Positions 3,326 to 28,628 of a stretch of DNA of 32,000 nt are shown one piece after another. The stretch covers positions 1,590,001-1,622,000 of the forward strand of contig NC_013967.1 in NCBI RefSeq assembly GCF_000025685.1, written 5' to 3'. Every line of letters begins with the position of its first letter. Positions within the stretch are counted from its first letter, which is position 1. Origin of the DNA: Haloferax volcanii DS2 (GTDB taxonomy: Archaea; Halobacteriota; Halobacteria; Halobacteriales; Haloferacaceae). A model generated the notes under the pieces. The model was not told where the DNA came from and did no database searches. It saw only the letters and a list, made by a program, of their open reading frames with translations. The translations under genes and the position numbers were made by a program.

Positions 3326-3447
3326 ACGTTACCGATTCGTCCCCCTGGGTAATTGCATTGACGCCACGGGAACGACACAGTCCGTCGGGGGAGAACGTTT
3401 CGAGGCTCGTTCCGGGAGGCTACGCACGGATGCACGAGAGTCGCATG

Positions 3448-8191: not shown

Positions 8192-9664
<1,473 letters not shown>

Positions 9665-9761
9665 AACGACCGAGACCACCCCGACGGGGTGGCTCACACG
9701 CGATCTTCCGAGTTCACCAATGACACCCGTTCGGACACCTTAGAACTACTAGGGCTAACAC

Positions 9762-9833
9762 GGGCCCATAGCTCAGTGGTAGAGTGCCTCCTTTGCAAGG
9801 AGGATGCCCAGGGTTCGAATCCCTGTGGGTCCA
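9762..9833 (+). tRNA. tRNA-Ala (anticodon UGC) in the 16S-23S spacer
   Basis: GGGCCCA TA GCTC AGTGGTA GAGT G CCTCC TTTGCAA GGAGG ATGCC CAGGG TTCGAAT CCCTG TGGGTCC A. It carries the G3:U70 Ala identity pair. Confidence 0.95.
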
Positions 9834-9870
9834 TGGTAAGCAGTACTCCACTCCGAAACGATCGTGCCCC

Positions 9871-9906
9871 TTAAGTGTGGCAAGACGTTTCGAATGAATG
9901 GATACT
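9871..9906 (+). promoter_or_regulatory. Internal promoter-like module between tRNA-Ala and 23S
   Basis: TTAAGT at 9871-9876 and TTCGAATGAATGGATACT at 9889-9906. The layout and spacing match P1 and P2. Confidence 0.55.
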
Positions 9907-10000
9907 GACGACAGATGCACCATCCCGCGCAAGCGAGGTTGGGAAGGGTCGAAAACACGCCTCGGCTATCTCCGAGGGTGTTTGATGAAACCGTGTGTAC

Positions 10001-10011
10001 GTGCAATCCAG
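10001..10011 (+). other. 5' arm of the 23S processing stem; pairs with 12999-13009
   Basis: GTGCAATCCAG (10001-10011) pairs with CTGGATTGCAC (12999-13009). The inner segments GGACCCGTTCTC / GAGAACGGGTCC are also complementary. Confidence 0.75.
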
Positions 10012-10055
10012 GCGTCCACTGGACCCGTTCTCCGGGTCACAGTGACTATATCAAC

Positions 10056-12957
<2,902 letters not shown>

Positions 12958-13032
12958 ATTCATACGCACTGAGACCCGAGAACGGGTCCAGGCGCAAACT
13001 GGATTGCACGGACACATTGGTAAGACGGCCCG

Positions 13033-13073
13033 ACCGATATTGGTATGGCAACGGTTCGATTCCGTTGATCGGT
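13033..13073 (+). ncRNA. tRNA-like (acceptor stem plus T-arm) element directly 5' of 5S rRNA
   Basis: ACCGAT (13033-13038) pairs with ATCGGT (13068-13073). This encloses the T-arm-like AACGG TTCGATT CCGTT. 5S starts 2 nt later. Confidence 0.6.
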
Positions 13074-13074
13074 A

Positions 13075-13196
13075 TTAAGGCGGCCAGAGCGGTGAGGTTC
13101 CACCCGTACCCATCCCGAACACGGAAGTTAAGCTCACCTGCGTTCTGGTCAGTACTGGAGTGAGCGATCCTCTGGGAAATCCAGTTCGCCGCCCCT
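13075..13196 (+). rRNA. rrf: 5S rRNA
   Basis: TTAAGGCGGCC...CCCGTACCCATCCCGAACACGGAAGTTAAGC...GTACTGGAGTG...TCTGGGAAA...TTCGCCGCCCCT, 122 nt. The termini are complementary. Confidence 0.93.
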
Positions 13197-13382
13197 ATTC
13201 ATACTTCACAGAGCCCACTGGACGCGGTGTCCAGTGGGCTTTGTTCATTTTATGCAGAGCGGCACGCACGGCCGCTCGCACACGCATACACAGAGCGACT
13301 GCGTCGGGCAGAGTCTCGAAAACGCCCGACTCAGGTCGCACACCGTCAGGCTTAAGCACAAGACCGGGATACCAGTAACTGC

Positions 13383-13459
13383 GCCAAGGTGGCAGAGTTC
13401 GGCCCAACGCATCCGCCTGCAGAGCGGAACCCCCGCCGGTTCAAATCCGGCCCTTGGCT
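13383..13459 (+). tRNA. tRNA-Cys (anticodon GCA), distal gene of the rRNA operon
   Basis: GCCAAGG...TCCGC CTGCAGA GCGGA...GCCGG TTCAAAT CCGGC CCTTGGC T. The 16S-Ala-23S-5S-Cys order is the classic haloarchaeal arrangement. The D-arm pairing is imperfect by eye. Confidence 0.85.
13449..13459 (+). repeat. Putative attL: last 11 nt of tRNA-Cys (GGCCCTTGGCT)
   Basis: The exact 11-mer recurs at 28737-28747. Confidence 0.55.
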
Positions 13460-13636
13460 CTCACACGTTTCTCTAAAGCCCAAGACGACTACGTCTTGGC
13501 TCGTTTCCTCGCTGATCTCAACTTCTCGGAGTTCAGACAGTGGGATCACGCTGGCGACCAACTCGTTTTGAAACAGAGTTCTTGGAATATTCCGCATACA
13601 CAAAGATTTATTCCGCTAGACGACCGTATTTCAGGT

Positions 13637-14212
13637 ATGGACGACCCGCGTACCGAACTCAAAGCAGATACCGACGAGCGTCGGGACCCGCCGGAGTTCG
13701 ACGATCTCGTCCCTCCCGAAGAACTAGTCGCTGGGGATCGCACTCGGGACGACTTCTTCGATGCCGTGCTCGGACTGGGCAGTCCCGCGACTGTGGGTGA
13801 GATCGCAGATCTCGCGGGACATGGGGTAGACGCTGCCCGTGAATATTTAGAGTGGTTCGAACGCATGGGTATCGTCACGCAGATCACCGATTCTCCTGCG
13901 ACGTACGAACGGAATCAGGAGTACCTGAATTGGCGGCGTGTCCAGCAGCTCCGGAACCAGTACGACGACGAGGAACTCCTCGCCTTCCTTGAAGACGCAG
14001 TGGAGCGTGATGAGTCGTTTGCGGAGAAGTTCGGTGTCGAATCTCCGGATGCGGTAGCGATCGCTGCGCACGCAACTGACACGGATCGTTCTGTCGAGAC
14101 AGTGTGGCGGGAGGTGTCAGCGTGGAAGACGACGCGCCGCCGAATCTCCCTCCTCGAACGGGCATTGCAGACTGACACGGACGGCACTGCCGGGCAGCGC
14201 ACTGTCGCATGA
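13637..14212 (+). CDS. winged-HTH DNA-binding protein (191 aa from the ATG at 13637); antitoxin-like partner
   Basis: SPATVGEIADLAGHGVDAAREYLEWFERMGIV is a TrmB/ArsR-like wHTH. The stop overlaps the next start (ATGA at 14209-14212). The track ORF's extension back to 13454 would overlap tRNA-Cys. Confidence 0.65.
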   Translation: MDDPRTELKADTDERRDPPEFDDLVPPEELVAGDRTRDDFFDAVLGLGSPATVGEIADLAGHGVDAAREYLEWFERMGIVTQITDSPATYERNQEYLNWRRVQQLRNQYDDEELLAFLEDAVERDESFAEKFGVESPDAVAIAAHATDTDRSVETVWREVSAWKTTRRRISLLERALQTDTDGTAGQRTVA

Positions 14213-14640
14213 GCGGCGGAAGGGACGGTGTCAGCGGTGCGCCGATCGACTTCGCCCGTCTGAACGTCGTCGCGGAGCGATTTGCTACCGACGATCGCTC
14301 CACTGAGATCGACATCCAACCAGAATTCGCACCCGATCGCATCGTCTGTCACTACGATTCCGGGTTCTATCCCCAGCGCGTGCAGAGTGCTCGCCTTGAG
14401 ATCGCGTGGCTCGAGAACGGGGACTTCTCGATACACTACCACGAAGAGCACCATGAGGGCGAGTTCGACCATCGATGGGATCGGCATCCCTCAGATCACA
14501 ACACGCGTGACCACGTTCACCCGGGTCCGGACGCACCGACACCCGGCGACGACGCGTCACATCCGGCGGAGTGGCGTGACGTGCTGTCGATGGTTCTCGG
14601 CGAGGTCGAAGCTCGACAACGAGCCTTCTGGACGGAGTGA
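14209..14640 (+). CDS. His-rich small protein, possibly TumE/DUF6516-like toxin (143 aa)
   Basis: The motif IHYHEEHHEGEFDHRWDRHPSDHNTRDHVHPGPD recalls the DUF6516 'hYH...RaDn.pH....PHH.H' pattern. That recall is low-certainty. It is translationally coupled to the wHTH gene. Confidence 0.6.
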   Translation: MSGGRDGVSGAPIDFARLNVVAERFATDDRSTEIDIQPEFAPDRIVCHYDSGFYPQRVQSARLEIAWLENGDFSIHYHEEHHEGEFDHRWDRHPSDHNTRDHVHPGPDAPTPGDDASHPAEWRDVLSMVLGEVEARQRAFWTE

Positions 14641-14647
14641 GTTCGTC

Positions 14648-15157
14648 TCAGATTTTCTCACGTCGTCGTCGCAGACTGTGACGGATCAGCAGGAGAAAGG
14701 TGCACAGTTCGGCCCGTCGCCGAGATTCGACAAAACGAAACACAACGTTGTAATGTCGAGTCCACGTTGAGAGGGTGCCGACCATCTGGTTCGGATGGAT
14801 GTCCCGCCACGCCATACAGCCCCGGTTCTGAAGGAGGGTTTCCCAGGATGTCTCCACGACGACCGCAAGGGGTTGTGGCCACTCGGTGGCCCGACGTAAC
14901 TCGGAACAGAATCGATCTCGCTCCCACGTGAGTGCGGTGAGGAAGTCGTCTCCGGACTTGCGTTCGACTGCGAACCGTGGGTGATAGGTGTCCGATTCCG
15001 GATCGTGCGTACAAGCAGTCGGGACAGCGTAGTCCCCGGTCGAGAGCGTCACGTCGCGCGTCTCTACTGCACACCTCTCGAACGTCCAGGTTCGCTGTTC
15101 GCGGGTATCTCGCAGTATCGTTGAGGGAATAGAACTACCGTGTCGTGTCTCGCCCAT
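14648..15157 (-). CDS. ERCC4 (XPF/Mus81-type) nuclease-domain-only protein (169 aa)
   Basis: The ERCC4 signature GDx(n)ERKx3D is present: VTLSTGDYAV...FAVERKSGDDFLTAL. No HhH or helicase region is attached. Confidence 0.75.
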   Translation of the reverse strand: MGETRHGSSIPSTILRDTREQRTWTFERCAVETRDVTLSTGDYAVPTACTHDPESDTYHPRFAVERKSGDDFLTALTWERDRFCSELRRATEWPQPLAVVVETSWETLLQNRGCMAWRDIHPNQMVGTLSTWTRHYNVVFRFVESRRRAELCTFLLLIRHSLRRRREKI

Positions 15158-15224
15158 CTATTGCGTTTGGTGCCGGTATCGGAAATAAACCCTCGCAGCG
15201 AGAGAACAAGGGGGATAACGGAGA

Positions 15225-17207
15225 TCAGAATCCGGCCTTCTCCAGTTCGTCGAGAAACGCCGGTCGGTTCGAGTGTTTGTCTTTCAGGAAATCGACGAAC
15301 TCTTCCAACCGCGCTTCGGGGACCAACCCCTGCATCTCTTCTAAGTGGTCGGCGATATCTCGGTAGTGTCGTCGACCGGTGTCGCCGGCGGCAAACGGGA
15401 CGAGCAGTTCCCGGTAGAGTTCGAAGTATTCGACCGGCGCCGTGGTTGCGACCGGGTCACGGTACTGGCGAACCGACGAGAGGTCTGCGTTCTCTTTCAG
15501 TTCGGCAAACGCTCTTTCGAGGTCGTCGTCGTGGACGTACAGCGCGACGAGGTCCTTTCGATCGTCCCGTTCGAAGTGCCGTTCGAATTCCCCGTAGATC
15601 GATTGCCACTCCTGATCGTCACAGATTGTCTTCAGGTCGTCGTACGCTGCCCACTCCGTGTGGTCAAGAAATAACTGCTTCAGGGTGGCACGGTACTCGT
15701 CCATATCTCGGTCCTCGTAGAGGTCGGCAGCGAGCCAACGGAGCTCACGAGCCGATCGGAACGTATGGATCCCGTCTTCGACGACTTCGATCGCACGGTT
15801 TTCGTTGCCTTCGTCGATCAGTCGTCGGGCGTACTCCTTGCAGAATCGCTTGCTCTCGAGGTAGATTTCCTCGTAGAGTTGCGAGAGGGCGTCTTCGTCG
15901 CCGAGTTCCTCGAGAATGTAGACGTAGGTCGAGAATATCCGCCGCTTCTGGAGTGACGACGATATGTCCGTGTCGGTCGTTCCTGATTTGGTCAGTTCGA
16001 CACGTGCAGTGTGTTTCTCGACGGTCGTCGGTTCATCGACGCGTAACTCCTCGAACGCGTCACCGACGAAGTACTCGAATTGCAGTGTCCCAACAGCCAA
16101 GTGTTCGACGTCGAGCGCTCCACCGGTGAAATCGTCGGTGCTGAGCGGACCATCGGTGAAATCGGATGCGTAGAGAACGTCGTCCGTCCGTTCGGGATGG
16201 TCTGTGGAACCGTCATCTCTCGCTGATCCGTCGGATGTATCGGCGCTGTCTTCAGTTTCATCTCGTCGGTCGTCCGTTTTCGAGGACAACTCACCCGACA
16301 GTACTGCGTCGAGTGTGACTCCGGACACGTGTGCGTCGAGTTGCTCCAGCCAGTATTCGAGGTCCGCGTCCTCCGTGCAGACCGTTCGGAGTGCGCCGTC
16401 GTAGTCGTCGCTGGCGAAGCCGTGGTCTGCCCCGACGAACTCCGCACAGAGATACTGGATGTACAGCTCCTTTCGCTCGTGCTCGAACTCCTGTTCTGCG
16501 ACCGTCTCTGCATATGCCTCGATAGCGCGTTCCAGTTCACGGCCGTAGTGCCCGCTGCTGTCGTCGACTCGGTCCAGATTCTCGCGTATCCCCTCGGAAA
16601 CCGCTCGATAGATATCCGTCGCCGTATCGACGTGGCCCCGTTCTCGATGTGTCTCCGCGAGGTCGGTGTACTGCGAGAAGTCGATGTGTGTGCCGTGTTC
16701 GACCATCCCTCGACGACTGACAGCGTCGTCGAACAGTCGATCGATCTCCTGCTTGTAGTCGTAGACTGTCTTGCCCGTGTCTTCGCCGACGAACGCGACG
16801 AACCGGTCACGGATATCCTGATCCGCCGCAACGATGTCGAGCAGAAACGCTCGGAGGTCCTCGGCTGTCGTCTGATCGACCAGCGATTCGATGTCGACCG
16901 TTTCATTTCGTTCGGGGTCAGTGTCACTCATCGTCTCGGGGTCTCGATCATCGACAGCGAGCAGGACCGCGACGACGTGTTTGCAGTCGCCCGCGTAGTC
17001 GTACGGACAACTGCAACGAGACCGGACCCCATCGTCTACGATATCGATAGCCACGTCGTAGTAGTTGGATCCCCGAACGGTGGCTCTGATTTCGCTGCCG
17101 TCGATATCCAGTTCTTGTATCCGATCTTGGTGATAATAGTTGGCACCACGCTCGAACGACTGTTCCGTACAGAGTGACCGTATTTCGTCGCGAGCCGGGT
17201 AGTCCAT
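15225..17207 (-). CDS. SWIM zinc-finger protein, long form, with an acidic linker and a helical-repeat C-terminal half (660 aa)
   Basis: SWIM CxCx(n)CxH is present: RSRCSCPYDYAGDCKHVVAVLL. The N-terminal ~260 aa are paralogous to the ORF at 23635-24432. The C-terminal half is alpha-helical and repeat-like, in the style of COG4715. Confidence 0.8.
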   Translation of the reverse strand: MDYPARDEIRSLCTEQSFERGANYYHQDRIQELDIDGSEIRATVRGSNYYDVAIDIVDDGVRSRCSCPYDYAGDCKHVVAVLLAVDDRDPETMSDTDPERNETVDIESLVDQTTAEDLRAFLLDIVAADQDIRDRFVAFVGEDTGKTVYDYKQEIDRLFDDAVSRRGMVEHGTHIDFSQYTDLAETHRERGHVDTATDIYRAVSEGIRENLDRVDDSSGHYGRELERAIEAYAETVAEQEFEHERKELYIQYLCAEFVGADHGFASDDYDGALRTVCTEDADLEYWLEQLDAHVSGVTLDAVLSGELSSKTDDRRDETEDSADTSDGSARDDGSTDHPERTDDVLYASDFTDGPLSTDDFTGGALDVEHLAVGTLQFEYFVGDAFEELRVDEPTTVEKHTARVELTKSGTTDTDISSSLQKRRIFSTYVYILEELGDEDALSQLYEEIYLESKRFCKEYARRLIDEGNENRAIEVVEDGIHTFRSARELRWLAADLYEDRDMDEYRATLKQLFLDHTEWAAYDDLKTICDDQEWQSIYGEFERHFERDDRKDLVALYVHDDDLERAFAELKENADLSSVRQYRDPVATTAPVEYFELYRELLVPFAAGDTGRRHYRDIADHLEEMQGLVPEARLEEFVDFLKDKHSNRPAFLDELEKAGF

Positions 17208-17340
17208 GTTTTGTGTGTGTGCCTACTGTGGTACCGACTGAAAACGTGACGCTGTGCCGTCACTGGGTGCTTGGTCGTTATGTCTCTCGGCCAGCGCCCG
17301 ACAGATTGAATCGTCCGACGGTCGTGCGTTCACGTACCGA

Positions 17341-18753
17341 ATGCGGATCGAGTTCGACGAGGGGACGCTCTTGCTCCACGATGCGCCCGAGACAGTTCCA
17401 CACGCAGAGTGGGACGACCGCGTCGATACTCACCGGGCACAGGCCTATCGATACCGGGCACTCCTCAAGTGGGCCGGACAGTGGAGCGATGGCGGTGGCC
17501 AGGCCACCCTCGACAGCGGATTCAGTCACGCTGTCGAAGACGCTGCCAGAGCGTACCCGGACCTCGCTCTGACACCCGCACTCCAGATCGAACCGCGTGA
17601 CTATCAGCAGACTGCACTCGGCTCGTGGGGTGCGCACGACCGACAGGGCACAGTAGTCCTTCCGACCGGCAGCGGGAAGACGTTCCTCGGATTGCAGGCT
17701 ATCGCCGACGCCGGTGTCAGCGCACTCGTCGTCACCCCGACGATCGATCTGATGAACCAGTGGCACGCCACGCTCACTCACGCGTTCGGTGAGCAACTCA
17801 CCGACGAGGTCGGCGTCCTCGGTGGCGGGTGTCACGATATCGGCGCGCCCACAGTCACTACCTACGACAGCGCCTACCGCTATATCGACGAGTACGGCGA
17901 TCGGTTCGGCCTGCTCATCACCGACGAAACCCACCATTTGGCGGCCGAGACGTACCTCCAAATTCCCGAGATGACGCTCGCGCCTTACCGCCTCGGATTG
18001 ACAGCGACCTACGAACGCGCTGACGGGCGAGAGACGCTACTCGAAGACCGTATGGGACCGGTTGTCTACGAGGAAGATGTCGACGCCCTCGCCGGAGATT
18101 TCCTCAGTGAGTACGAGACCATCCAGATGTCCGTCGATCTCACACCAGCGGAACGGACTGAATACGACGAGGAGTACCAGATCTACCGGGACTACGTCGA
18201 TAGTCACGACTTCGACCTCTGGAAAGAACAGGGCTACGCGGAGTTTCTCAAGCGGACGTCCTACGATCCACAGGGGCGACGTGCGCTCGTCGCAAAGCAA
18301 CGGGCCGAGCGCATCGCCCGGACGGCGTCGAAGAAACTCGATACGCTCGACAATCTGCTCAAACGTCACCACGACGATCGCGTCATCGTCTTCACCGCCA
18401 ACAACGACTTCGCCTACGACATCTCCCGGGAGTTCATTCTCCCGTGTATCACGCACCAGACCGACACCGACGAACGCACCGAGATTCTCGACCGGTTCCG
18501 CAGCGGTGAGTACTCCATGCTCGCCACCTCGCAGGTCCTCGACGAGGGCATCGACGTGCCAGCGGCCAACGTCGGCATCATCCTCTCCGGGAGCGCATCG
18601 AAACGACAGTACGCCCAACGACTCGGCCGGATCCTCCGTCCGACAGACGACCGCCAGCCAGCACGGCTCTACGAGATCATCACGACCGACACGATGGAGA
18701 CGTACGTCTCGCAGCGACGACGCGAGGGGGTGAGTAGCAGTGCTGACAGCTGA
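17341..18753 (+). CDS. xpb: archaeal XPB helicase, short canonical form (470 aa from the ATG at 17341)
   Basis: The N-terminus MRIEFDEGTLLL is DRD-like. Also seen: Walker A PTGSGKT, motif II LITDETHH, LTATYERADGRE at the RED-motif position, and motif VI-like QRLGRILR. The gene overlaps the downstream Bax1-like gene. Confidence 0.85.
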   Translation: MRIEFDEGTLLLHDAPETVPHAEWDDRVDTHRAQAYRYRALLKWAGQWSDGGGQATLDSGFSHAVEDAARAYPDLALTPALQIEPRDYQQTALGSWGAHDRQGTVVLPTGSGKTFLGLQAIADAGVSALVVTPTIDLMNQWHATLTHAFGEQLTDEVGVLGGGCHDIGAPTVTTYDSAYRYIDEYGDRFGLLITDETHHLAAETYLQIPEMTLAPYRLGLTATYERADGRETLLEDRMGPVVYEEDVDALAGDFLSEYETIQMSVDLTPAERTEYDEEYQIYRDYVDSHDFDLWKEQGYAEFLKRTSYDPQGRRALVAKQRAERIARTASKKLDTLDNLLKRHHDDRVIVFTANNDFAYDISREFILPCITHQTDTDERTEILDRFRSGEYSMLATSQVLDEGIDVPAANVGIILSGSASKRQYAQRLGRILRPTDDRQPARLYEIITTDTMETYVSQRRREGVSSSADS

Positions 18754-20092
18754 TCTCGCACGGTCGCGAACACGCGACGGCGCAGTCCGTCCTCTGTTCA
18801 TCGACATCTCCGACGAGCAGTACCGAGAGACGGCGGCCACGCTGATAGCGCTGTTCGAGGACCATCTCGGTGAACCGAAGGGAGAACTGGACGACGCCAT
18901 CGACGAACTGACCGTGGCCGATACCGACTACAAGATCGTCCAGGGGCTGGCGAAACTCCTCAGAGACGAGTGCGAGTTCGAGCAACAGGCGGCCGTTGAC
19001 CCACGCGAGATCCGCAAGCGACTGTTCGAGCGAGCCAACGATCGCTACCCGATCGTTCGCCAGCCCACACTCGGCGAAGACACGCAGAAACTGGAAGTCT
19101 ACAGCGCGGTCGCCGACGAGTTGGGCATCTCACTCGAGGAGTGTTACCGGGGTATGTACGCTGATCTGGAGGACAACAAACGGCTCGTCCGGTTCGGCGA
19201 CCAGTCGGTGCGCGATGACAGCGACGGACAGGAGTCCACGACGACAACGACGAAACTGACGGGAAATAGCAAGCAGGCGTACGATCAGCGCGACCAGACG
19301 GTCGACTGGCTGCTGGCTCGCTACAACCTCGCGCTGGCACAGGCCGTGCTCTACGACGCCTCGAAGATGCACTTTCGGGTGTGGGAGCACTTCGGAACGG
19401 TGTTCAGTTACATGAAGCTGTTCGGATTGATGCACCGGATCTACCCCATCGACGAGGACGGCAACCGCGTCGCAAGCACGGACGTGGCAGCGGGCTACGA
19501 GGCGGAACTCGACGGGCCAGTCTCGCTGTTTCGGCAATCACAAAAGTACGGCATCCGGATGGCGAACTTCCTGCCCGCGCTCCCGCTGTGTGACCGCTGG
19601 GAGATGCGCGCGGAGATTCTCGACGAGGGGTCGGCCGGCGACACCAAACAGTTCACACTCGACTACACTGATGGGCTCGTCTCCCACTACAGCACCGGCC
19701 AGCGGTTCGACAGCGACGTCGAGCGAACGCTCGCCCGAAAGTGGGAGCGGTCGACCACAGAGTGGGACCTCCAGCGCGAAGACGATGTGTTCGATCTCGG
19801 CTCCGAAGTGATGATCCCCGATTTCGCCATCGAACATCCCGACGGACGGCGGGCAATCATGGAGATCGTCGGGTTCTGGACGCCGGAGTACCTGGCGTCG
19901 AAACTGGCGAAGATACGGCAGGTCGAGACCCACAACTTCGTGTTGGCGGTCTCGGAACGACTGGACTGTTCCGACGAGGACTTCGGGGACGTTGCGGATC
20001 GCGTACTGTGGTTCAAAACCGGGATGCACGTCTACGACGTGGTCGAACTGGCCGAGGAGTACGCCTCTCCGGTCGAAACAGACCCCGACTGA
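18740..20092 (+). CDS. bax1: Bax1 (DUF790) nuclease, partner of XPB (450 aa, GTG start)
   Basis: The N-terminus LTADLARSRTRDGAVRPLF is typical of DUF790. The C-terminal PD-(D/E)xK-like core is MIPDFAIEH...MEIVGFWTPEYL. There is a 14-nt overlap with xpb. Confidence 0.75.
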   Translation: MLTADLARSRTRDGAVRPLFIDISDEQYRETAATLIALFEDHLGEPKGELDDAIDELTVADTDYKIVQGLAKLLRDECEFEQQAAVDPREIRKRLFERANDRYPIVRQPTLGEDTQKLEVYSAVADELGISLEECYRGMYADLEDNKRLVRFGDQSVRDDSDGQESTTTTTKLTGNSKQAYDQRDQTVDWLLARYNLALAQAVLYDASKMHFRVWEHFGTVFSYMKLFGLMHRIYPIDEDGNRVASTDVAAGYEAELDGPVSLFRQSQKYGIRMANFLPALPLCDRWEMRAEILDEGSAGDTKQFTLDYTDGLVSHYSTGQRFDSDVERTLARKWERSTTEWDLQREDDVFDLGSEVMIPDFAIEHPDGRRAIMEIVGFWTPEYLASKLAKIRQVETHNFVLAVSERLDCSDEDFGDVADRVLWFKTGMHVYDVVELAEEYASPVETDPD

Positions 20093-20099
20093 TCGGCAC

Positions 20100-20468
20100 T
20101 CAGCCCAAGCGGCCGCCGTCGCCGTTCCAGTAGTGCCAGTCATCGACTGCCTCCCGGGTATCCTGATCTACGTCGAGCACTTCGAGTTGTGACAACGGGA
20201 CACCGAATTCCCTGTCCTTCCACTCCACGAGGACGAACATCTCACGACTGCTGACGACTTCGTCCGTCATTCCGACGACAGGCACTTCTTCGCCCTCACG
20301 CAGCGGCGAGATCGTTCGCTCCTCGATACACCGCGCCTGAAACGGGAACGTCATCTCGCGTTCGAGGTGATAGCACCAGCTGATCGCTTGCTCGTCGGCG
20401 GTGTACGCGTCGGTGAGTATCTCCCTCCGAATGCGTTTGTCCCGCTCTTCGTCTGTCTCCCGTGTCAT
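20100..20468 (-). CDS. small acidic hypothetical protein (122 aa), last gene of the minus-strand cluster
   Basis: ATGA start/stop overlap with the upstream gene at 20465-20468. The C-terminal motif is VPLSQLEVLDVDQDTREAVDDWHYW. No family is assigned with confidence. Confidence 0.6.
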   Translation of the reverse strand: MTRETDEERDKRIRREILTDAYTADEQAISWCYHLEREMTFPFQARCIEERTISPLREGEEVPVVGMTDEVVSSREMFVLVEWKDREFGVPLSQLEVLDVDQDTREAVDDWHYWNGDGGRLG

Positions 20469-21235
20469 GGTCGTTTCTGCTTGACGATTGCGGCCGTGTC
20501 GGTCGACGTGATCACGTCGCCGTCGAGCACCTCGTCGATTTCGTCTGGTTCGTAGACATCCTTGACGATGCAGTAGTAATGCGAGGGCGTCCCGAAGTCG
20601 TAGACGAGACTGAGTCTGTCACCCTCTCGAAGTCTGGCCCGCTCGGCGACATCCGCAATCGTCATCTCGCCCGCTTTCGTGTACGTCCGGTCGCCTGCTT
20701 CCTCGTACTGGCGGTCAGGAAGCACGTTGAGACTGGAATCCAGATACTCGTCTTCGAGGCCGTACATCCGGAGGTGGAAATCGTCGAGCGTCGAGAACCG
20801 GCACACGAGTCTGTCCAGTTCCGCCATCGTCGTCTCCGGTCTCACGACGATATCGTACCACTCCTCCCGCGCACGCCCTTTCTGCTTCCACCGGAGCCGA
20901 TACCCGACAGTCCCGATCTGCTCGGACAGGTCGTCAGCATCCTGCTCTTTCCCCACTGCTTCACGCGTGTTCGACCAGCAATACGAGCAGATCTCGTCAG
21001 GTGCATCGCCTTCGAAGCCCGCCTTGTTGATGTCGTGGTGGGCGGCAAACTCCGACAACGAGACGTGCTGCGGACGCGGGTGGCGGTTCCCTCGACTACA
21101 CATCATCTCCCCGGGACCTCCAATGCCGAGCGAGAAGCGAGAGTCCGTCTCCGATTGGTCGGCGTCCGTATCGATGATGTGCGCGACGGTTCCGGTTCCG
21201 ATCTCGATCACGAATCGGTCGGTTGGCTCGCTCAT
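20465..21235 (-). CDS. MM3350-like / pRiA4b ORF-3-like (PF07929-type) protein with a Cys-containing N-terminal extension (256 aa)
   Basis: YRLRWKQ...EWYDIVVRPETTMAELDRLVCRFSTLDDFHLRMY and LSLVYDFGTPSHYYCIV match the two hallmark blocks of the family (Y.l.V.L..iWR.i.v....L..LH..I...fgW...HLh.F and Y.YDFGD.W.H.i). Confidence 0.65.
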   Translation of the reverse strand: MSEPTDRFVIEIGTGTVAHIIDTDADQSETDSRFSLGIGGPGEMMCSRGNRHPRPQHVSLSEFAAHHDINKAGFEGDAPDEICSYCWSNTREAVGKEQDADDLSEQIGTVGYRLRWKQKGRAREEWYDIVVRPETTMAELDRLVCRFSTLDDFHLRMYGLEDEYLDSSLNVLPDRQYEEAGDRTYTKAGEMTIADVAERARLREGDRLSLVYDFGTPSHYYCIVKDVYEPDEIDEVLDGDVITSTDTAAIVKQKRP

Positions 21236-21241
21236 CGTTGC

Positions 21242-21874
21242 TCACCGGTACTGGATGTAGATGCCATGGTCGCGATACAGGTCGTGGAACGCGACGAACC
21301 GCTGTCGGGAGGCCGCTTTCGGTTCGTCTGGCTCTACTCGATGCTCGTGTTCTTCGAGAAGGTGGGTTTTCTCCTCGCCGGGGAACGGAAACGAGACGCC
21401 CGAGGTTGTAGTAAACTCGTCGTACCGAACGGGTCTGAAAAACAGCACTGTCCCCGGCTCCGCGGTTCGGCTGAGGTTGATATCCAGCAGCGTGTGTTCT
21501 TCGCGGCCGTCGAGCAGATCGGTTACCGTCAGACGGGGGTCTGAGTCGCTGATGGACTCGACCTCGAACAGCGAGGGGTCGGCGTCGACGGTGGCTTCGA
21601 GAATGTCCCGTTCGGTTTCGCTCTCCCAGCGCTCCGCTTCGAGGTATCGCTCCGCCGCAGTGGTCCCGTCCCGGTGGTATTCGTACAGCGCGAACTCGAA
21701 GTGGGCCGCCATCTGGGATTCGAACTCGTAGGCCAGGTTCAGCCCGTCGAATTCGATGTCCAGCTCGGACGCGGTTTCTACGATCAGTTCCCGGTCAGAG
21801 TACGCCTCGAGGATGTCGCTGTTCAATTGCGTCCCGACTTCCCGATAGGTCTTGTACTGGTCGGTGTCGGTCAC
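21242..21874 (-). CDS. hypothetical acidic protein (210 aa)
   Basis: Clean ORF, co-directional, only 6 nt from the next gene. No motif recognised. Confidence 0.6.
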   Translation of the reverse strand: MTDTDQYKTYREVGTQLNSDILEAYSDRELIVETASELDIEFDGLNLAYEFESQMAAHFEFALYEYHRDGTTAAERYLEAERWESETERDILEATVDADPSLFEVESISDSDPRLTVTDLLDGREEHTLLDINLSRTAEPGTVLFFRPVRYDEFTTTSGVSFPFPGEEKTHLLEEHEHRVEPDEPKAASRQRFVAFHDLYRDHGIYIQYR

Positions 21875-21933: not shown

Positions 21934-22920
21934 TTACAGATCCATATCGGCAAACGTCCATTCCTCTCCCAGTTGTCGGTGGAACCCCTCGGATTCGATC
22001 GTGTTCCGCAACTGCGATCTGACTGTCTCGTCGAACTCGAACCGGTCGTTCAATTCATCGCGCATGTCCCAGTAACGAGGGACCTTCGGAGCGGAATCGC
22101 GGTCGACCTCGGACAGGATCGACGCCAGCAGGTATCGATCCTCGTAGTCGATCCGCTCGTCACTCAGCAACGCATCCATCAAGTCGGCTGCAGCGTGCTG
22201 ATCGGCGTAGAACGCATGCGGGAGCACGCCCCGAACCCAGAATAGTTCCTCGGTAACAGCATCCTGGAGTTGCTCTTCGACCGAGTGCTCGGGATAGCCG
22301 ATTCCCCATCCGTACGTGAACGATTCTTCCCAACTCGTGTCTTTATTTGAATCCCAGAACGAACCGAGATACGCCAGCGCCTCGGCGGGGACTGCCCCGA
22401 CGCCGTCGCGCCGTCGCGTCCGGACGACGTGGCGTCCGACTGCGTTCTCGATGACCGGGCTCACGAAGGGTTCGTCGTCGCTCTCACGCGAATATGCGTC
22501 GATAAGATCTGTGAGAAACGGCCATCCTTCACGCGTAGCGATTTCGTCGAGCGCCTCTGCTGCCGGTTCGTAAAACGCCCAGAATATCCCGCGATACGTG
22601 TCGTCGTTCTCGGTTTGGTGGTATTCCTGAAGTTCTCGTTCGTAGTGAGCGAGCATCTGGAATGCGGCGTCAGCGTCCCCTTTCGCAGCCGCTTCGAGAT
22701 TGGTTTTCAACGTTCCACTCGCGGCTTCCAGCCCTCGTTTCTCGCGCTCTTGATTCCGCCGCTCCATGTCGGCGTCGAGAGCGTCCGAGATCGAATCGAG
22801 GAAACTGTCGAACGACGACAGCGGGTTCGACTCCGCTGGCTCTTCAGCAGGACAGTCGTGTAGACGCAGGCGACTCAACGTAGTGAAACTCTCACCGCAG
22901 GCATCGCACTCGTGTGGCAT
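21934..22920 (-). CDS. hypothetical protein with an N-terminal C2H2/C2HC-type zinc finger (328 aa)
   Basis: N-terminus MPHECDACGESFTTLSRLRLHDC (Cx2Cx12HxC). The rest is acidic and helical with no recognised domain. Confidence 0.65.
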   Translation of the reverse strand: MPHECDACGESFTTLSRLRLHDCPAEEPAESNPLSSFDSFLDSISDALDADMERRNQEREKRGLEAASGTLKTNLEAAAKGDADAAFQMLAHYERELQEYHQTENDDTYRGIFWAFYEPAAEALDEIATREGWPFLTDLIDAYSRESDDEPFVSPVIENAVGRHVVRTRRRDGVGAVPAEALAYLGSFWDSNKDTSWEESFTYGWGIGYPEHSVEEQLQDAVTEELFWVRGVLPHAFYADQHAAADLMDALLSDERIDYEDRYLLASILSEVDRDSAPKVPRYWDMRDELNDRFEFDETVRSQLRNTIESEGFHRQLGEEWTFADMDL

Positions 22921-22995: not shown

Positions 22996-23553
22996 TTACT
23001 CGTCGAGATCAGGGTATTGAGACGGTGCTGTGCCTTGCTCGTCGACGACGACGGGATCACCATCCATCGATCCCGTTCGCGTGTCTTGCAGTTCGATGTA
23101 GTGTTCCCAGCTGTCGCCCATGTCGAACGTGTAGGAGAGCGCGCCCAGATCTTCCGGATCGAGTTCGTCGATCGTCGTCTCAGCGGCGTTGCCTTCCATC
23201 GGTGGGTTCGACTGGAGTTCGCGGAACCGTTCTTTGGCTTCCTCGGACGCGTCGTCCGGCACGGCCTGCTCGATGAAGCGATCGATCTCTTCGTCGTCCA
23301 TTGTGCGCCAGCTCGGACCGCCATCGTAGAGCATCGGATGGACGTAGCTCCGGAGCGCGATGCCGTTGTCATCGCGTGTGATGAACTCGTAGGCGTGGCT
23401 CTCCCAGCGATCGAACGCCTGGAAGATCGCCTCGTGGAACGTAGCGAGCGTGTGTGACCCGTCGATCTCGAGGTCGTGCCAGACCTCCTCGTCGGGTTCG
23501 AACCCCAGCGGTGGATGCGGCTGGAGCCAGACGCGGAACACGTAGGTCGTCAT
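22996..23553 (-). CDS. MM3350-like / pRiA4b ORF-3-like protein (185 aa)
   Basis: YVFRVWL...EVWHDLEIDGSHTLATFHEAIFQAFDRWESHAYEF and LSYTFDMGDSWEHYIEL are close to the family consensus. Confidence 0.75.
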   Translation of the reverse strand: MTTYVFRVWLQPHPPLGFEPDEEVWHDLEIDGSHTLATFHEAIFQAFDRWESHAYEFITRDDNGIALRSYVHPMLYDGGPSWRTMDDEEIDRFIEQAVPDDASEEAKERFRELQSNPPMEGNAAETTIDELDPEDLGALSYTFDMGDSWEHYIELQDTRTGSMDGDPVVVDEQGTAPSQYPDLDE

Positions 23554-23634
23554 GCCTCGTCTAACGAGGGTCAGTGTTGTAGATTTTTCGCGTAGACAAT
23601 AGATATCCGCTGATGAATCGATTCGCTGACTTCC

Positions 23635-24432
23635 TCACTCGTATCGCTCCTCCAGATCGTCGAGTGCGCGCCGGAACTGCTCGTCGTTGATCCGCGGCTC
23701 TGCCGTTGCCCGCGCCTCAAGCACGCCAGCGTACGTGTCGAACTCTTCGGGAGTCGGATTGGTCGCGAGGACGCAGTCGGCGTAGCCGTCGAGTGCGGTC
23801 TGGATCGCCTTCGCGTAGTGGTCGTAGGCACCGTCGATCCAGTTGTATTTCTCGTCGATCTCCTCGAACACCGCTCGGTAGACGGTCGCAGCGGCCAGAT
23901 ACCGCTCGCGGTCACGGTACTGCTCGGCGATCTCCAAAAACCGGGAGAAGTCGATGGCCTCGAACACGACCGGGTCGGCGTGTTGCTCGAACAACTGCGC
24001 GATTTCCTCGCGGTACTCCTCGACCGATCTGTGGTCGTCGCCAAAGCGTGCGAGAAACTGCTCGCGCAACTCCGGATGTTCGGCGAGGGCGTCACGGGCG
24101 AACCCACGCAGGTCCTCGGCCGACACGTCGTCGATGACTGCCTCGACACGCTCGCTCTCGTCCTGTGGCGGGCTGGCGGCGATGTCCAGCAGTACTGCGA
24201 CGACGTGCTTGCAGTCGCCGCCACCGTCGTACGGACAGGTACACCGCGCATCGATACTGCGCCCGCCGAACTCGACAGTCACGTCGTACAACTTCGAACC
24301 GCTGATGGTGGCCGTAACGAGTTCGCCAAATCGGTCGAGTTGCTGAATGCGTCCCTCGTCACGGTAGTTGACTCCGCGTTCGAACACCGCATCGGTGCTT
24401 CTGTTCTTGACCCTTTCCCTATCGATGTTCAT
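23635..24432 (-). CDS. SWIM zinc-finger protein, short form (265 aa from the ATG at 24432)
   Basis: ARCTCPYDGGGDCKHVVAVLL is a SWIM motif. The protein is collinear with the N-terminal part of the 660-aa SWIM protein. It lies 32 nt downstream of the helicase gene. Confidence 0.8.
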   Translation of the reverse strand: MNIDRERVKNRSTDAVFERGVNYRDEGRIQQLDRFGELVTATISGSKLYDVTVEFGGRSIDARCTCPYDGGGDCKHVVAVLLDIAASPPQDESERVEAVIDDVSAEDLRGFARDALAEHPELREQFLARFGDDHRSVEEYREEIAQLFEQHADPVVFEAIDFSRFLEIAEQYRDRERYLAAATVYRAVFEEIDEKYNWIDGAYDHYAKAIQTALDGYADCVLATNPTPEEFDTYAGVLEARATAEPRINDEQFRRALDDLEERYE

Positions 24433-24464
24433 GACTCGTCTTTCGACGCAGACGTAAAATTCGA

Positions 24465-26873
24465 TTACGGTGTCGAATCGGCGGCCTGCCGGCTCGGATC
24501 GGCCAGCGCCATCGTGAGCGTCGCCGCGAGGCGTTTGTCGAGCGGTTCGTTCGCTCGGCCACAGTGCGGTGATTGAATACACGCCGGACAGCCGTCGGAA
24601 CAGCCACAATCGGCGAGCAGTTCCCACGTGTGCTGGAAGAGTCCCTCGATGTGGTCGTATCCGTTGCGGGCGAGTCCGACACCACCGCGGTAACTGTCGT
24701 ACATGAATAGCGCGCTCGTCTCGGTCTGTGGGTGTTCGGCCGTCGAGACGCTTCCAACGTCACGCCGGTCACAAAGGATGACCAGCGGGAATGTGGCGAC
24801 GAGGGCGTGCTGGACGGCGTGGAGGCCACCCTCGAACGACCCGGACATCGTCTGCATCAGGCTTTCCAGTCCCGGTGGGAGCGTCACGTACAGTGCACGG
24901 GTCGAGAGCGTCGTTTCGGGCAGCTTGAGTGCCTCCTCGGTCATGATCTCACCAGTTCGGTGGTCGCGTCGCTGGAAGCCGGTGACCTGCTTCCGTCGCG
25001 TCACGTCCGCGAAGTGAACGGTCACGTCGTCGCGGGTCGCCAGTGGCTTGGTAGCGCTGTCCTCCTCGATAGTCATCGACTCCTCGTACTGCACGCGCGT
25101 CTGGTGGTCGCTGTCCGTTTCGGCGAGCCACGCCACGTCGCGGTCTAGGTCGAGTGACTGGACTTCGTAGTTCTGCCCCTGATGGTGGTAGATCGCACCT
25201 GGATGTACGTCCCGCAGTGCCGCGTTGAGCGGCAACTTCCCGAGTTCGTCAGTCGCTCCCCCTCGAACCCGGAGGGTGACCATGCGTTCTGTGATGGTTC
25301 GGAGCCCCTGTTCGTACGGATTCACCGTTCGTCCGCTGGCGGTGCGTCGCCATTCGAGTCCTTGATCTGTCTGTCGCCGGGTCAATTCGCCGTCGTTTGT
25401 GAGGGTACTGACGATGTCGGGGAAAGTAGAACCGAAATACGCCTCGTCGGCGGTTCGGAGCGGTCCTTCCATGGCCGCGGCGTGTGTATGCAGTTTCAGG
25501 AGATGCGAATTCGAGGGATTGGCGACGGCACGCTCGGGCGTCTGCTCGAACAGTTCGTTAGGATGCTTGATAACGTACTGGTCGAGTTGATCCTCGCTGG
25601 CGACGAGCGCGACGAGGCTCGGGTCGGTCCCACGGCCAGCGCGGCCCGCGCGCTGGAACGTTGCCATCTGTGTTCCAGGGTACCCGTCTAACAGGACGGC
25701 GTCGAGGCTGCCGATGTCGACGCCGAGTTCCAGCGCGCTCGTGCTCCAGACGCCGGCACAGTCCCCGGAGTGCAGTGCAGTCTCGATTGTCGCCCGCCGG
25801 TCATCGCGCAGTCCTGCGTGGTACGCAGTTACGCTCTGGGCGATGTCGGCCCTCCCGCGCTCTGCGAGTGTATCGCTGCTGATGGTGGCGTACCGCTCTG
25901 CCGTCTGCCTCGCGCGCGTGAACGCCACTGTCTGATACCCCTGCATCACGAGGTCGACGAACAGTCGCATGGTTTCCCCGTGGTTGGAGCGGCGCTGTCC
26001 ACCACCGGCCGGTGCATCGCCCTCGTCGTATTCCGGTGGTTGCCAGAACAGCCAGTGTGTCGGACCCGTTTCACTGGTGTCCTCGTCGACGAGTTCGAAC
26101 GAGTCGGTCGGTTGGCCGGCGATCGTCGCTGCGTGCTCCCGGGGATTGCCGATCGTCGCGGAACAGCACACGAACTGCGGGTCGGCACCGAGACGGTCAC
26201 AGATCCGCGCCAGCCGGCGGCAGACGAGACCGACGTGACTGCCGAAGACACCGCGGTACTCGTGGACTTCGTCGACGACGACGAGTTCCAACGACTCGAA
26301 GAACGCTCGCCAGAGGTCGCCCGCGTGACTGAGCAGTCCACAGTGGAGCATATCCGGCGTCGTCAAGACGATGGACGGGTCTTCGTCACGTGCCTGCTGG
26401 CGCTCGTCCGAAGAGAGCGAGCCTGTGTACTGAGTCACGGAGAGATCGTCGAACGGTGCAGCGAAATCAGACAGCGTCGTCTCCTGGTCGTTGATCAGCG
26501 CGACCTGCGGACCGATATACAGCGTCCGTCCGTCGTACTTGTGAGCGCGCTCGATGGCGGGAATCGTGTACGCGAGGCTCTTTCCGCTTGCTGTCGGCGT
26601 CGCGAGGACGACGTTCTGCCCGTTGCGAACCGCTTCGATGGCGTCGGTCTGGTGTGCGTAGAGTCCGTCGATGCCCCGGTTAGCAAGGAGGTCTGCGAGC
26701 CGGCGCTCCATCTCACAGGATCGAGTGATGGGCCTACGAGCGGGAATCTCCCGCTGGAACTGGATCTGATCGCGGTAGTACTCGCGGTTCTGTACCCACT
26801 CGACGAACTCGTTCACTACTCCGTGGATACTGCGTGCCCGCATATAGGGATATGGCCCTCGACTTGTCGCCAT
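24465..26873 (-). CDS. COG1205-type DEAD/DEAH (DEVH) SF2 helicase with a C-terminal DUF1998/MZB Cys cluster (MrfA/Hrq1-like, 802 aa)
   Basis: Motifs seen: Walker A ATPTASGKS, motif II VVVDEVHEY, CSATIGNP and motif VI QRAGRAGRG. The C-terminus is DCGCSDGCPACIQSPHCGRANEPLDK. Confidence 0.85.
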   Translation of the reverse strand: MATSRGPYPYMRARSIHGVVNEFVEWVQNREYYRDQIQFQREIPARRPITRSCEMERRLADLLANRGIDGLYAHQTDAIEAVRNGQNVVLATPTASGKSLAYTIPAIERAHKYDGRTLYIGPQVALINDQETTLSDFAAPFDDLSVTQYTGSLSSDERQQARDEDPSIVLTTPDMLHCGLLSHAGDLWRAFFESLELVVVDEVHEYRGVFGSHVGLVCRRLARICDRLGADPQFVCCSATIGNPREHAATIAGQPTDSFELVDEDTSETGPTHWLFWQPPEYDEGDAPAGGGQRRSNHGETMRLFVDLVMQGYQTVAFTRARQTAERYATISSDTLAERGRADIAQSVTAYHAGLRDDRRATIETALHSGDCAGVWSTSALELGVDIGSLDAVLLDGYPGTQMATFQRAGRAGRGTDPSLVALVASEDQLDQYVIKHPNELFEQTPERAVANPSNSHLLKLHTHAAAMEGPLRTADEAYFGSTFPDIVSTLTNDGELTRRQTDQGLEWRRTASGRTVNPYEQGLRTITERMVTLRVRGGATDELGKLPLNAALRDVHPGAIYHHQGQNYEVQSLDLDRDVAWLAETDSDHQTRVQYEESMTIEEDSATKPLATRDDVTVHFADVTRRKQVTGFQRRDHRTGEIMTEEALKLPETTLSTRALYVTLPPGLESLMQTMSGSFEGGLHAVQHALVATFPLVILCDRRDVGSVSTAEHPQTETSALFMYDSYRGGVGLARNGYDHIEGLFQHTWELLADCGCSDGCPACIQSPHCGRANEPLDKRLAATLTMALADPSRQAADSTP

Positions 26874-27656: not shown

Positions 27657-28628
27657 ATGCCGTTTAGCGTCAGCTGGCACACGCTGCTCGAGGAGCTCGA
27701 CGAGTTGCCCGACGATGCTGAACTCGTCACACCGCTCTCGCACGATACGTTCCGCGTCACGGACGTACAGGAACACCGCGTTGTCGTCACGTTCGACGAC
27801 ACGGGAGAGCGTCGCCCGCTCCAGCGCGATCAGTTCGAGACCCTTCACCGCCGGATCCAGGACTCGAACGGTGCGTTCGAACTCGACCGGCTCCCACCCG
27901 ATGCCGATCCCTATCCGGCAGTGCTGAGCCTGCATCCGCGATTCGAGGTGGACGAAGAGCAGGGTAGTATCGCCGAAACGGAAGCAGAGACTGGTACCCA
28001 ACTCCTGAGTGGCGAATCAGCACCTGCCGAGAGCGACCGTGTCGAACCTGACGAGATCGACGTGTATTCGGATGCCCTTCTCCTCATCGATGCGCTGGAA
28101 CGTCAGGACGTCTCCGATCTCACAGCACTGGAGACGGAAGCACTGGTGAACCTCTACACGCTCTGTTCGGATGTCCAGCGGAACGCGGACGAACTCCGCC
28201 AGGACATCGCCGACGTGTTACTCGATCGACTCCACCACGATCAGCCAGTCCACGGGCAGTACGGCTCGGTTCAGCGAACGTCGCGTCGTAACCGCTCGTT
28301 GAAAGACGAGGAAGACGTACTGGCCACACTGGAAGGCGCAGGGATCGACCGCGAGCGTGTCATGAGCGTCGACTCGAAGAAAGTGAACGAGGCACTGGAA
28401 GTAACGGAACTCTCGGAAACGGATGTCTACGAGGTTGACGAGAGCGAATACGTCCGGAAGGCCGAAGTAGACGAGGATGTCAAAGAGTCACGACTCCAGG
28501 GATTGAAAGACCGGCTTGCGGCCAGTAGCGACGCAGAATCCGACGAACTCAGACAGGAGATCGAGGCCCTCGAAGAACGTATCGACGACCTTACGAGTTT
28601 CAGTACGGGGACACAGATGCAGGGGTAG
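27657..28628 (+). CDS. hypothetical acidic protein with a coiled-coil-like C-terminus (323 aa)
   Basis: Clean ORF with strongly acidic composition. The C-terminus SDELRQEIEALEERIDDL is heptad-like. No tyrosine- or serine-recombinase motifs. Confidence 0.6.
   Translation: MPFSVSWHTLLEELDELPDDAELVTPLSHDTFRVTDVQEHRVVVTFDDTGERRPLQRDQFETLHRRIQDSNGAFELDRLPPDADPYPAVLSLHPRFEVDEEQGSIAETEAETGTQLLSGESAPAESDRVEPDEIDVYSDALLLIDALERQDVSDLTALETEALVNLYTLCSDVQRNADELRQDIADVLLDRLHHDQPVHGQYGSVQRTSRRNRSLKDEEDVLATLEGAGIDRERVMSVDSKKVNEALEVTELSETDVYEVDESEYVRKAEVDEDVKESRLQGLKDRLAASSDAESDELRQEIEALEERIDDLTSFSTGTQMQG

Follow-up and report, generated by a model that had tools for sequence, protein, structure and literature searches.

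The DNA analysed here (the window) is a stretch of 32,000 nucleotides of the Haloferax volcanii chromosome, positions 1,590,001-1,622,000 in forward orientation. It contains an accessory island (about 13.46-28.7 kb) that begins directly after the tRNA-Cys gene of the rRNA operon rrnB. The helicase-nuclease pair XPB-Bax1 lies there next to a second pair, formed by a 660-aa SWIM-finger protein (SWIM660) and a 169-aa ERCC4-only nuclease. On balance, we favour the view that the island is modular and horizontally mobile, that it comprises at least three separable units, and that its SWIM-ERCC4 and XPB-Bax1 units act as proposed in the Discussion. The architecture, with separable units, facultative juxtaposition and mobility, was assigned with high confidence. 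A defence-like role for the island is put forward tentatively.

The first unit is XPB-Bax1, a 2.8-kb cassette that is self-contained, has a promoter-like block of its own and often has CcbP-like and PRiA4-domain proteins alongside. The second is a predicted zinc-finger/alpha-solenoid scaffold followed by a basic, HhH-less nuclease of XPF type with catalytic residues intact, sometimes with a further protein (p328) encoded between. In the third, a short SWIM protein accompanies an MrfA/Hrq1-like DUF1998 helicase. Units two and three form one co-directional array, and unit one sits inside it in the opposite orientation. That the units co-localise often, and not obligately, is the best-supported description.

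XPB-Bax1 as a presence/absence unit

XPB (17341-18753) and Bax1 (18740-20092), both on the plus strand, are divergent from SWIM660 (15225-17207, minus strand), which is followed after 67 nt by the ERCC4 gene (14648-15157, minus strand). An earlier note on this DNA had listed these four open reading frames (ORFs) and both spacers, and an ORF check and Pfam returned them exactly. The earlier note had also described the four genes as one module with a shared divergent control region of 133 nt (17208-17340). Neither the fixed module nor the shared region was upheld by comparison with about 90 related loci (numbered L001 onwards), many of which come from related cassettes.

The part of the spacer next to SWIM660 (17208-17288, minus strand) is promoter-like and is conserved with either XPB or a gene for a CcbP-like protein upstream. 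A TATA-like TTTTC (plus strand TGAAAACGTG, 17239-17248) lies about 40 nt upstream of the SWIM660 ATG, and the CACGTTTTC element at this distance is kept whichever of the two genes stands upstream. The XPB promoter-like block (17297-17340, plus strand, with GATTGAATC at 17304-17312) was delimited by conservation. The 45 nt upstream of the XPB ATG (CCCGACAGATTGAATC...) are kept in all XPB-bearing loci, even in L054/L057, where SWIM660 is missing and XPB directly faces ERCC4. As each upstream block is kept independently of the other unit, the supposed shared region resolves into two separate blocks. The spacer probably consists of two promoter-like blocks placed back to back, each of which would travel with its own gene; sharing is not demonstrable. 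A perfect 6-nt inverted repeat, GTGACG-N6-CGTCAC (17246-17251 / 17258-17263), overlaps the TATA-like element of SWIM660 and is kept in close relatives; it could be an operator. In L001 (Halapricum hydrolyticum), the XPB/SWIM660 spacer carries an 83-nt insertion with terminal inverted repeats that is like a miniature inverted-repeat transposable element (about 9790-9880).

In seven loci (L007, L010, L066, L071, L073, L074, L081) the CcbP stop is followed by the SWIM660 start within about 55-85 nt, with no XPB-Bax1 between. The CcbP-SWIM660 spacer of L007 is homologous to 17208-17288 of the window. Since CcbP abuts the SWIM660 upstream region at such sites, XPB-Bax1 is a precise indel of 2,811 bp (17289-20099, plus strand), its limits being set by the junctions in loci without XPB. 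Pairwise identities among 17 loci were strongly correlated for XPB and Bax1 (r=0.97) and less so for XPB and SWIM660 (r=0.61). Between L004 and L008, for example, XPB is 97% identical and SWIM660 72%. This incongruence indicates that the cassette has moved or recombined among different SWIM660 lineages.

Linkage of the units across loci

Linkage was counted under three conditionings: 31 genome loci found with a SWIM660 alignment, 43 loci derived from ERCC4, and 28 XPB-Bax1 plasmids from PLSDB, whose matches did not include pHV4, home of the paralogue Rad25a. All 31 SWIM660 loci are from Halobacteria. XPB was located at most 3 kb from SWIM660 in 15 of about 27 assessable loci, and ERCC4 was downstream in 11. 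ERCC4 accompanied SWIM660 in 8-10 of 14 loci with XPB and in 2 of 12 loci without it. The gene directly upstream of ERCC4 on the same strand, among the 43 loci, was SWIM660 in about 13, SWIM660 and then p328 in 6, a short SWIM2-like gene in 3, and SWIM2 and then p328 in 1. Overall, about 30 loci, some of them core-genome sites, have a long or short SWIM gene before ERCC4, with p328 between or not. Where enough upstream DNA was present, XPB-Bax1 was found in about 10 of 23 ERCC4 loci. The two units thus adjoin in about 40-55% of SWIM/ERCC4 loci, and the linkage raised in the earlier note does recur elsewhere, with the genes variously arranged and in one case with a SWIM protein that is not orthologous.

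Fourteen loci show the four-gene arrangement (L001, L004, L008, L009, L011, L017, L019, L051, L058, L065, L069, L070, L077, L085). Geometries were divergent and adjacent (many loci), divergent with inserts of 1.5-2 kb (L014, L017, L019), co-directional (L021, L024), or with XPB facing ERCC4 (L054/L057). On a Halococcus plasmid (L033), a non-orthologous protein, SWIM599, is encoded directly after Bax1 and has the SWIM finger alone in common with SWIM660. Juxtaposition in such differing geometries points to some functional affinity and not to pure hitch-hiking.

Each unit also occurs by itself. SWIM660-ERCC4 was found without XPB-Bax1 in eight loci (L007, L061, L066, L067, L071, L073, L074, L081), and a short SWIM protein with ERCC4 alone in three (L049, L050, L072). 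The pairs of L049 and L050 (metagenome contigs) are minimal, with a short SWIM of 276-296 aa, and have core genes around them, one pair being flanked by the genes for SRP54 and methionyl-tRNA synthetase (MetRS) and the other lying beside rpl1/rpl10/rpl12. SWIM660 was present on 1 of the 28 XPB-Bax1 plasmids (pHsi204 alone). ERCC4 of this type had no match in PLSDB plasmids, and so was on 0 of the 28.

Other partners recur on plasmids. Among 15 plasmid contexts, a CcbP-like neighbour was found in 6 and a PRiA4-domain neighbour in 6, with one or both in 10. The CcbP-like gene immediately precedes XPB, in the same orientation, in five loci (L033, L039, L040, L041, L043) and is downstream of Bax1 in L032. 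CcbP therefore stands next to XPB-Bax1 in two geometries, convergent after Bax1 in the window and co-directional before XPB on plasmids. The CcbP-like protein may have a regulatory role or be a third component. No published description of the SWIM-ERCC4 pair, or of an association of XPB-Bax1 with SWIM, was found in the literature.

XPB and Bax1

The island XPB (470 aa) is Rad25b (HVO_1736 in the published gene table). Pfam returned XPB_DRD (1.6e-14), ResIII and ERCC3_RAD25_C. Homologues align from the ATG at 17341, and the alignment with Archaeoglobus fulgidus XPB (AfXPB) is continuous over residues 3-465 (2e-106). Motifs I, II, V and VI (PTGSGKT, DETHH, SQVLDEGIDVP, QRLGRILR) are kept in 15-17 of 17 homologues. 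The RED motif is absent: the window has LTATYERADGRE where AfXPB has LTATFEREDGRH, with R-A-D at residues about 229-231. In 17 related cassettes R-A/P/S-D replaces the RED motif, with the ATPase motifs all intact.

Bax1 (450 aa) starts 14 nt before the end of XPB, so that start and stop overlap, and matches DUF790 over residues 1-437 (Pfam, 2e-132). It aligns to solved Bax1 structures. Its DVERTL, IPDFA and EIVGFW segments align with E275, D305 and E318 of AfBax1. The second active site in the N-terminal part is also kept, as YADLED against YADREE in A. fulgidus (D133/E135 of AfBax1); Asp is found in 17 of 17 homologues and D or E at the second acidic position in 16 of 17.

The characterised archaeal XPB-Bax1 complexes (A. 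fulgidus, S. tokodaii; PDB 6P66, 6P4F) have the same full-length XPB, including the DRD and motifs I/II/V/VI, and the same full-length DUF790 Bax1 with both acidic sites. The island XPB differs from theirs in having R-A/P/S-D in place of RED. The haloarchaeal pair differs further in being a mobile cassette on plasmids and islands, with recurrent CcbP-like, PRiA4-domain and SWIM partners that are undescribed for the characterised complexes. In vitro, the archaeal complex unwinds DNA and cuts at the junction, and in the published model Bax1 makes the 3' cut and XPF, where it exists, the 5' cut. According to published genetics, rad25b is the sole highly expressed rad25 paralogue, its deletion causes no gene-conversion defect, and a quadruple rad25 deletion is viable with normal growth.

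SWIM660 and ERCC4

SWIM660 is 100% identical to a protein encoded on the H. volcanii chromosome and matches Pfam SWIM above the cut-off (2.3e-6). The zinc-finger residues C65, C67, C75 and H77 do not vary among 15 homologues and conform to the CxCxnCxH signature. The structure model (predicted local distance difference test score, pLDDT, 68) comprises the SWIM finger, a helical domain (106-291), a linker (about 297-414) that is of low confidence yet conserved in sequence, and a confident C-terminal alpha-solenoid (411-657). Foldseek of this model against the PDB returned no enzyme fold, only generic TPR/HAT or armadillo-like solenoids at low template-modelling (TM) scores. SWIM660 looks like a putative non-enzymatic scaffold or adaptor for ERCC4, in agreement with the adaptor role suggested for it earlier: domain scan and model were scaffold-like and gave no enzymatic domain.

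Bacterial SWIM proteins of the stand-alone type, among them the PADLOC candidate PDC-S62, and the ZSWIM adaptors of eukaryotes share with SWIM660 the CxC-x7-CxH finger and helical repeats without a catalytic domain. PDC-S62, itself only a candidate system, matches the N-terminal 230 aa of SWIM660 at 1e-23. The C-terminal half of SWIM660 is unrelated to those of the bacterial SWIM proteins, and the link to an ERCC4 nuclease and XPB-Bax1 is specific to Halobacteria. A separate TPR protein encoded beside plasmid XPB-Bax1 was tested and was not homologous to the SWIM660 C-terminus.

The 169-aa nuclease matches Pfam ERCC4 at residues 17-147 (8.6e-13) and has no HhH2 match in the Pfam scan. D17xRE20, G41-D42-Y43 and E65-R66-K67-S68-x2-D71 are invariant in 16 sequences, in keeping with the GDXn-ERKX3D signature. 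Catalytic residues are thus kept in both Bax1 and ERCC4, which bears out the two nucleases named in the earlier note. The protein is basic (computed isoelectric point, pI, 8.7), and its family was seen in Halobacteria only. It shares the ERCC4 fold signature (DxRE, GDY, ERKx3D) with XPF, Mus81 and Hef, including crenarchaeal short XPF and the P. furiosus Hef nuclease domain (1J22), and is only weakly similar to the latter. It differs from these proteins in its length of 169 aa, which leaves no room for a helicase domain, in lacking the HhH2 dimerisation/DNA-binding domain, in its basic pI, in its confinement to Halobacteria, and in being encoded nearly always after a SWIM protein.

Mobility

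A contig of Halapricum hydrolyticum (L001) was identical in DNA to the window at 97.5% over 13348-17241, 94.6% over 17239-21235 and 93.5% over 23615-26861 (blastn). For comparison, the Halorhabdus rRNA operon is 83% identical to that of the window. An island identity of 93-97.5% against 83% for the Halorhabdus rRNA operon indicates recent transfer between genera. Twenty-eight haloarchaeal plasmids, pNRC100/200 among them, carry XPB-Bax1 with a protein identity of 70-83%, often near ParA and orc1/cdc6 genes. The whole cluster, interrupted by insertion sequences (IS), is on plasmid pHsi204 of Haloarcula sinaiiensis. That the locus is accessory and horizontally mobile, as the earlier note had it, is well supported by the Halapricum identity and the plasmid relatives.

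Nine further loci (L001, L004, L007, L009, L011, L022, L028, L051, L058) likewise have a tRNA-Cys gene next to the ERCC4 side of the cluster. The nine are from seven named genera (including Halapricum, Natronorubrum, Halorubrum, Haloarcula, Halobellus and Halorhabdus) and two metagenome contigs. A tRNA-Leu or tRNA-Phe gene is the flank in two other loci, and an integrase gene follows ERCC4 in L047. These positions suggest that the tRNA-Cys of rrnB is the left border of the island and a recurrent insertion site. The island is none of the proviruses Halfvol1-4.

Defence and repair context

Neighbours of XPB-Bax1 on plasmids include BREX PglZ/PglX, TIR-DUF4231, a restriction enzyme, AbiEi, and UvrD with PD-(D/E)XK. 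In L037 and L039, XPB-Bax1 is directly beside BREX genes (PglZ, PglX, large methyltransferase) and a TIR/DUF4231 pair. Searches of PADLOC-DB 2.0 gave partial matches, of the SWIM N-terminus to PDC-S62, of XPB to PbeA (3e-55), and of the MZB helicase to SngC/BrxH/DruE; no complete known defence system was found with this database. No Rad3/XPD-type domain was found by Pfam among the island proteins scanned. Both rad3a (HVO_1351) and rad3b (HVO_0039) are outside the island.

Remaining genes of the island

The minus-strand array reads, in order: MrfA-like helicase, SWIM2, PRiA4b, p328, p210, PRiA4a, CcbP, [XPB-Bax1 on the opposite strand], SWIM660, ERCC4. SWIM660-ERCC4 is therefore the tail of an array that reaches 26873 and is interrupted by XPB-Bax1. 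PRiA4, p210, p328 and SWIM2 genes are found again, differently ordered, among L001-L026 and L051-L085.

The MrfA/Hrq1-like DEAD-box helicase (802 aa, 24465-26873, minus strand) has DEAD, Helicase_C, WHD_HRQ1 and MZB (DUF1998) domains in Pfam and matches TIGR03817 (3e-195). It shares these four domains with the DUF1998 helicases of MrfAB repair and of DISARM, Druantia, Dpd and Shango. The island array differs in being without an MrfB-type exonuclease and without the partner genes of those systems; the partners here are SWIM, PRiA4, CcbP and ERCC4 proteins instead. With the short SWIM2 gene (23635-24450, minus strand), which lies 14 nt away, the helicase makes a second helicase-SWIM pair. The listed ORF of SWIM2 reaches 24627, and its true start is probably near 24450. 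The N-terminal 220 aa of SWIM2 are 35% identical to SWIM660.

PRiA4b (22996-23553), p328 (21934-22920), p210/DUF7986 (21242-21874) and PRiA4a (20465-21235) follow on the minus strand. The model of p328 (PF26458; pLDDT 86) has a C2H2 finger plus a helical domain. Foldseek against the PDB gave no significant structural match for it, the hits being generic TPR/HAT or armadillo-like solenoids at low TM-scores. The CcbP-like small acidic protein (20100-20468, minus strand) matches Calci_bind_CcbP (Pfam, 4e-34) and has 25% D+E and a computed pI of 4.4.

A DUF7342 gene (13454-14212, plus strand; Pfam, 4e-30) and its partner, which encodes a 143-aa protein (p143; 14209-14640, plus strand), are convergent with ERCC4. 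The true start of the former is probably downstream of the tRNA. The same pair is beside ERCC4 in seven other loci (L001, L006, L022, L051, L052, L055, L058). Stop-codon spacing is 7 nt at both convergent junctions (p143/ERCC4, 14640-14648; Bax1/CcbP, 20092-20100), which leaves no space for separate terminators. The final island gene (27657-28628, plus strand) encodes a conserved hypothetical protein of 323 aa without a Pfam match, with blastn counterparts in L001, L007, L011, L021 and L026.

Island limits and flanking core DNA

The rRNA operon rrnB (8192-13197; 16S 8192-9664, tRNA-Ala 9762-9833, 23S 10050-12962, 5S 13076-13197) and its closing tRNA-Cys gene (13383-13459, plus strand) were assigned with Rfam. 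The operon explains the low GC of 8.2-13.2 kb, and that stretch is not island. Numerous spurious ORFs are listed over rrnB (8192-13459). A reading of 7.7-13.4 kb as a run of small mobile-element ORFs was ruled out, the Rfam assignment being an rRNA operon. The genome paper places rrnB 6 kb from oriC2.

GC content at third codon positions (GC3) is 0.62-0.80 in island genes and 0.86-0.94 in the flanking core genes. By the rRNA operon and origin assignments, much of what had been called a low-GC island is origin plus rRNA. The accessory part at about 13.46-28.7 kb stands; 8192-13197 (rRNA operon) and 3447-4585 (origin-type repeats) were removed from it.

The orc1/cdc6 gene at 4707-5912 (plus strand) is orc5 (HVO_1725), at chromosome position 1594707-1595912 in the genome paper. 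A 21-nt unit (reference copy AGACACCACGTTTCCGGTGAA) occurs upstream of it in eight direct copies (3447-4585), which are consistent with origin-recognition boxes of oriC2/orc5. A second XPB-family helicase (721 aa, 526-2691, minus strand; Pfam) is Rad25d (HVO_1723 in the published gene table). The earlier note was right that the core carries such a gene, which extends to 2691 and not 2613; it has no XPB_DRD match in the Pfam scan and no Bax1 partner. The 3' end of a tRNA-Tyr gene (379-452, minus strand) recurs twice beyond the gene, at 93% and 74% identity (159-185, 277-303, 379-405). These copies look like leftover att sites of earlier integrations.

Discussion

In the reading that we favour, SWIM660, or elsewhere a short SWIM2-like protein, would recruit, scaffold or regulate the HhH-less ERCC4. 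XPB-Bax1 would act in the way known of the archaeal complex in vitro, opening DNA and cutting one of its strands at the junction. Where both units are present, ERCC4 could supply a cut of opposite polarity; from the published Bax1/XPF models, dual incision by Bax1 and ERCC4 is plausible. Surveillance or degradation of foreign or aberrant DNA is somewhat more likely as the task of the island than housekeeping excision repair. The patchy, plasmid-linked and defence-neighbouring distribution is what tilts us slightly in this direction.

Several points weigh against this reading. Co-occurrence counts are not independent events, because many loci are related cassettes. The Pfam scan of the island ORFs gave no integrase domain, and the tRNA-Cys 3' end has no second copy in the window that could form an att repeat. 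Viral data yielded no relatives, either in IMG/VR with the SWIM660 alignment and Bax1 or by tblastn of Bax1 against phage records. Bax1, ERCC4, CcbP, PRiA4a, p210 and p328 had no PADLOC match, and the PADLOC helicase matches are generic similarity within helicase superfamily 2 (SF2). Repair-type homologues exist for every enzyme component (XPB, Bax1, XPF/Hef, MrfA/Hrq1), a repair cassette that spread horizontally fits just as well as defence does, and the high constitutive expression of rad25b is atypical of a toxic effector.

The strongest rival is accordingly an acquired repair cassette for the host genome, which we consider possible and less likely than the modular, mobile island acting as above. 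In it, XPB-Bax1, ERCC4 and the MrfA-like helicase would carry out repair in parallel; their substrates could be bulky lesions or crosslinks, or else stalled forks and R-loops close to rrnB/oriC2, a highly transcribed region. Repair homology of all enzymes and high rad25b expression in unstressed cells keep this rival strong, and conservation of both Bax1 active sites and the ERCC4 motif favours it too. The rrn-adjacent position, conserved across genera, would also suit it, but is equally explained by tRNA-Cys as an insertion or recombination anchor. A patchy, plasmid-borne distribution with very recent transfer between genera is not what such a cassette would lead one to expect. The normal growth of the quadruple rad25 mutant and the lack of XPD on the island also count against it. 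Haloarchaea rely on UvrABC for UV repair, a further point against this rival.

An obligate machine of all four proteins is improbable. In that proposal XPB, Bax1, SWIM660 and ERCC4 would be expressed from a shared divergent control region and make cuts of opposite polarity, with SWIM660 as the bridge. The 14 four-gene loci, in many genera and metagenomes, and the higher frequency of ERCC4 in SWIM660 loci that have XPB are in its favour, as are the loci where XPB directly faces ERCC4 and the published division of 3' and 5' cuts between Bax1 and XPF. Against it stand the precise indel with separate promoter-like blocks, the incongruent histories of XPB and SWIM660, the 27 of 28 plasmid XPB-Bax1 pairs without SWIM660 and the lack of this ERCC4 on all 28, and the eleven loci cited above in which a SWIM-ERCC4 pair occurs without XPB-Bax1.

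Least probable is that the island is left over from an integrated plasmid or integrative element, with proteins that serve the element (replication, maintenance, transfer, anti-defence) and not the host: the adjoining tRNA gene, the integrase of L047, the IS-broken cluster on pHsi204, the ParA and orc1/cdc6 neighbours on plasmids and the acidic CcbP (for which a DNA-mimic role is speculation) speak for it, but neither an integrase nor an att repeat was found in the window, the island bears no replication/partition genes, ERCC4 is absent from all PLSDB plasmids, the viral searches gave no relatives, and the minimal SWIM-ERCC4 pair occurs in core-genome contexts.

Returning to the modular, mobile island, a more far-reaching and rather unlikely extension is that haloarchaeal XPB-Bax1 is not in the first place a machine for excision repair but the effector of an unrecognised mobile system against plasmids or viruses, or for control of DNA uptake. 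CcbP-like, PRiA4 and SWIM-ERCC4 proteins would then be interchangeable sensor/regulator and second-nuclease modules. Published work has yet to settle what archaeal XPB-Bax1 does in vivo. If the extension were true, this long-puzzling pair would gain a defence role, directly testable in H. volcanii.

The haloarchaeal SWIM-ERCC4 pair is newly defined by this analysis, and the rrn-terminal tRNA-Cys is suggested to be a site where accessory DNA commonly lands or recombines in Halobacteria. The host is a model organism that is amenable to genetics and has known viruses and plasmids. Given the mobility of the cassette, its recombination among islands and plasmids, its BREX, TIR and restriction neighbours and its repeated placement next to SWIM-ERCC4, the question moves from the mechanism of archaeal nucleotide excision repair to which DNA the cassette acts on.

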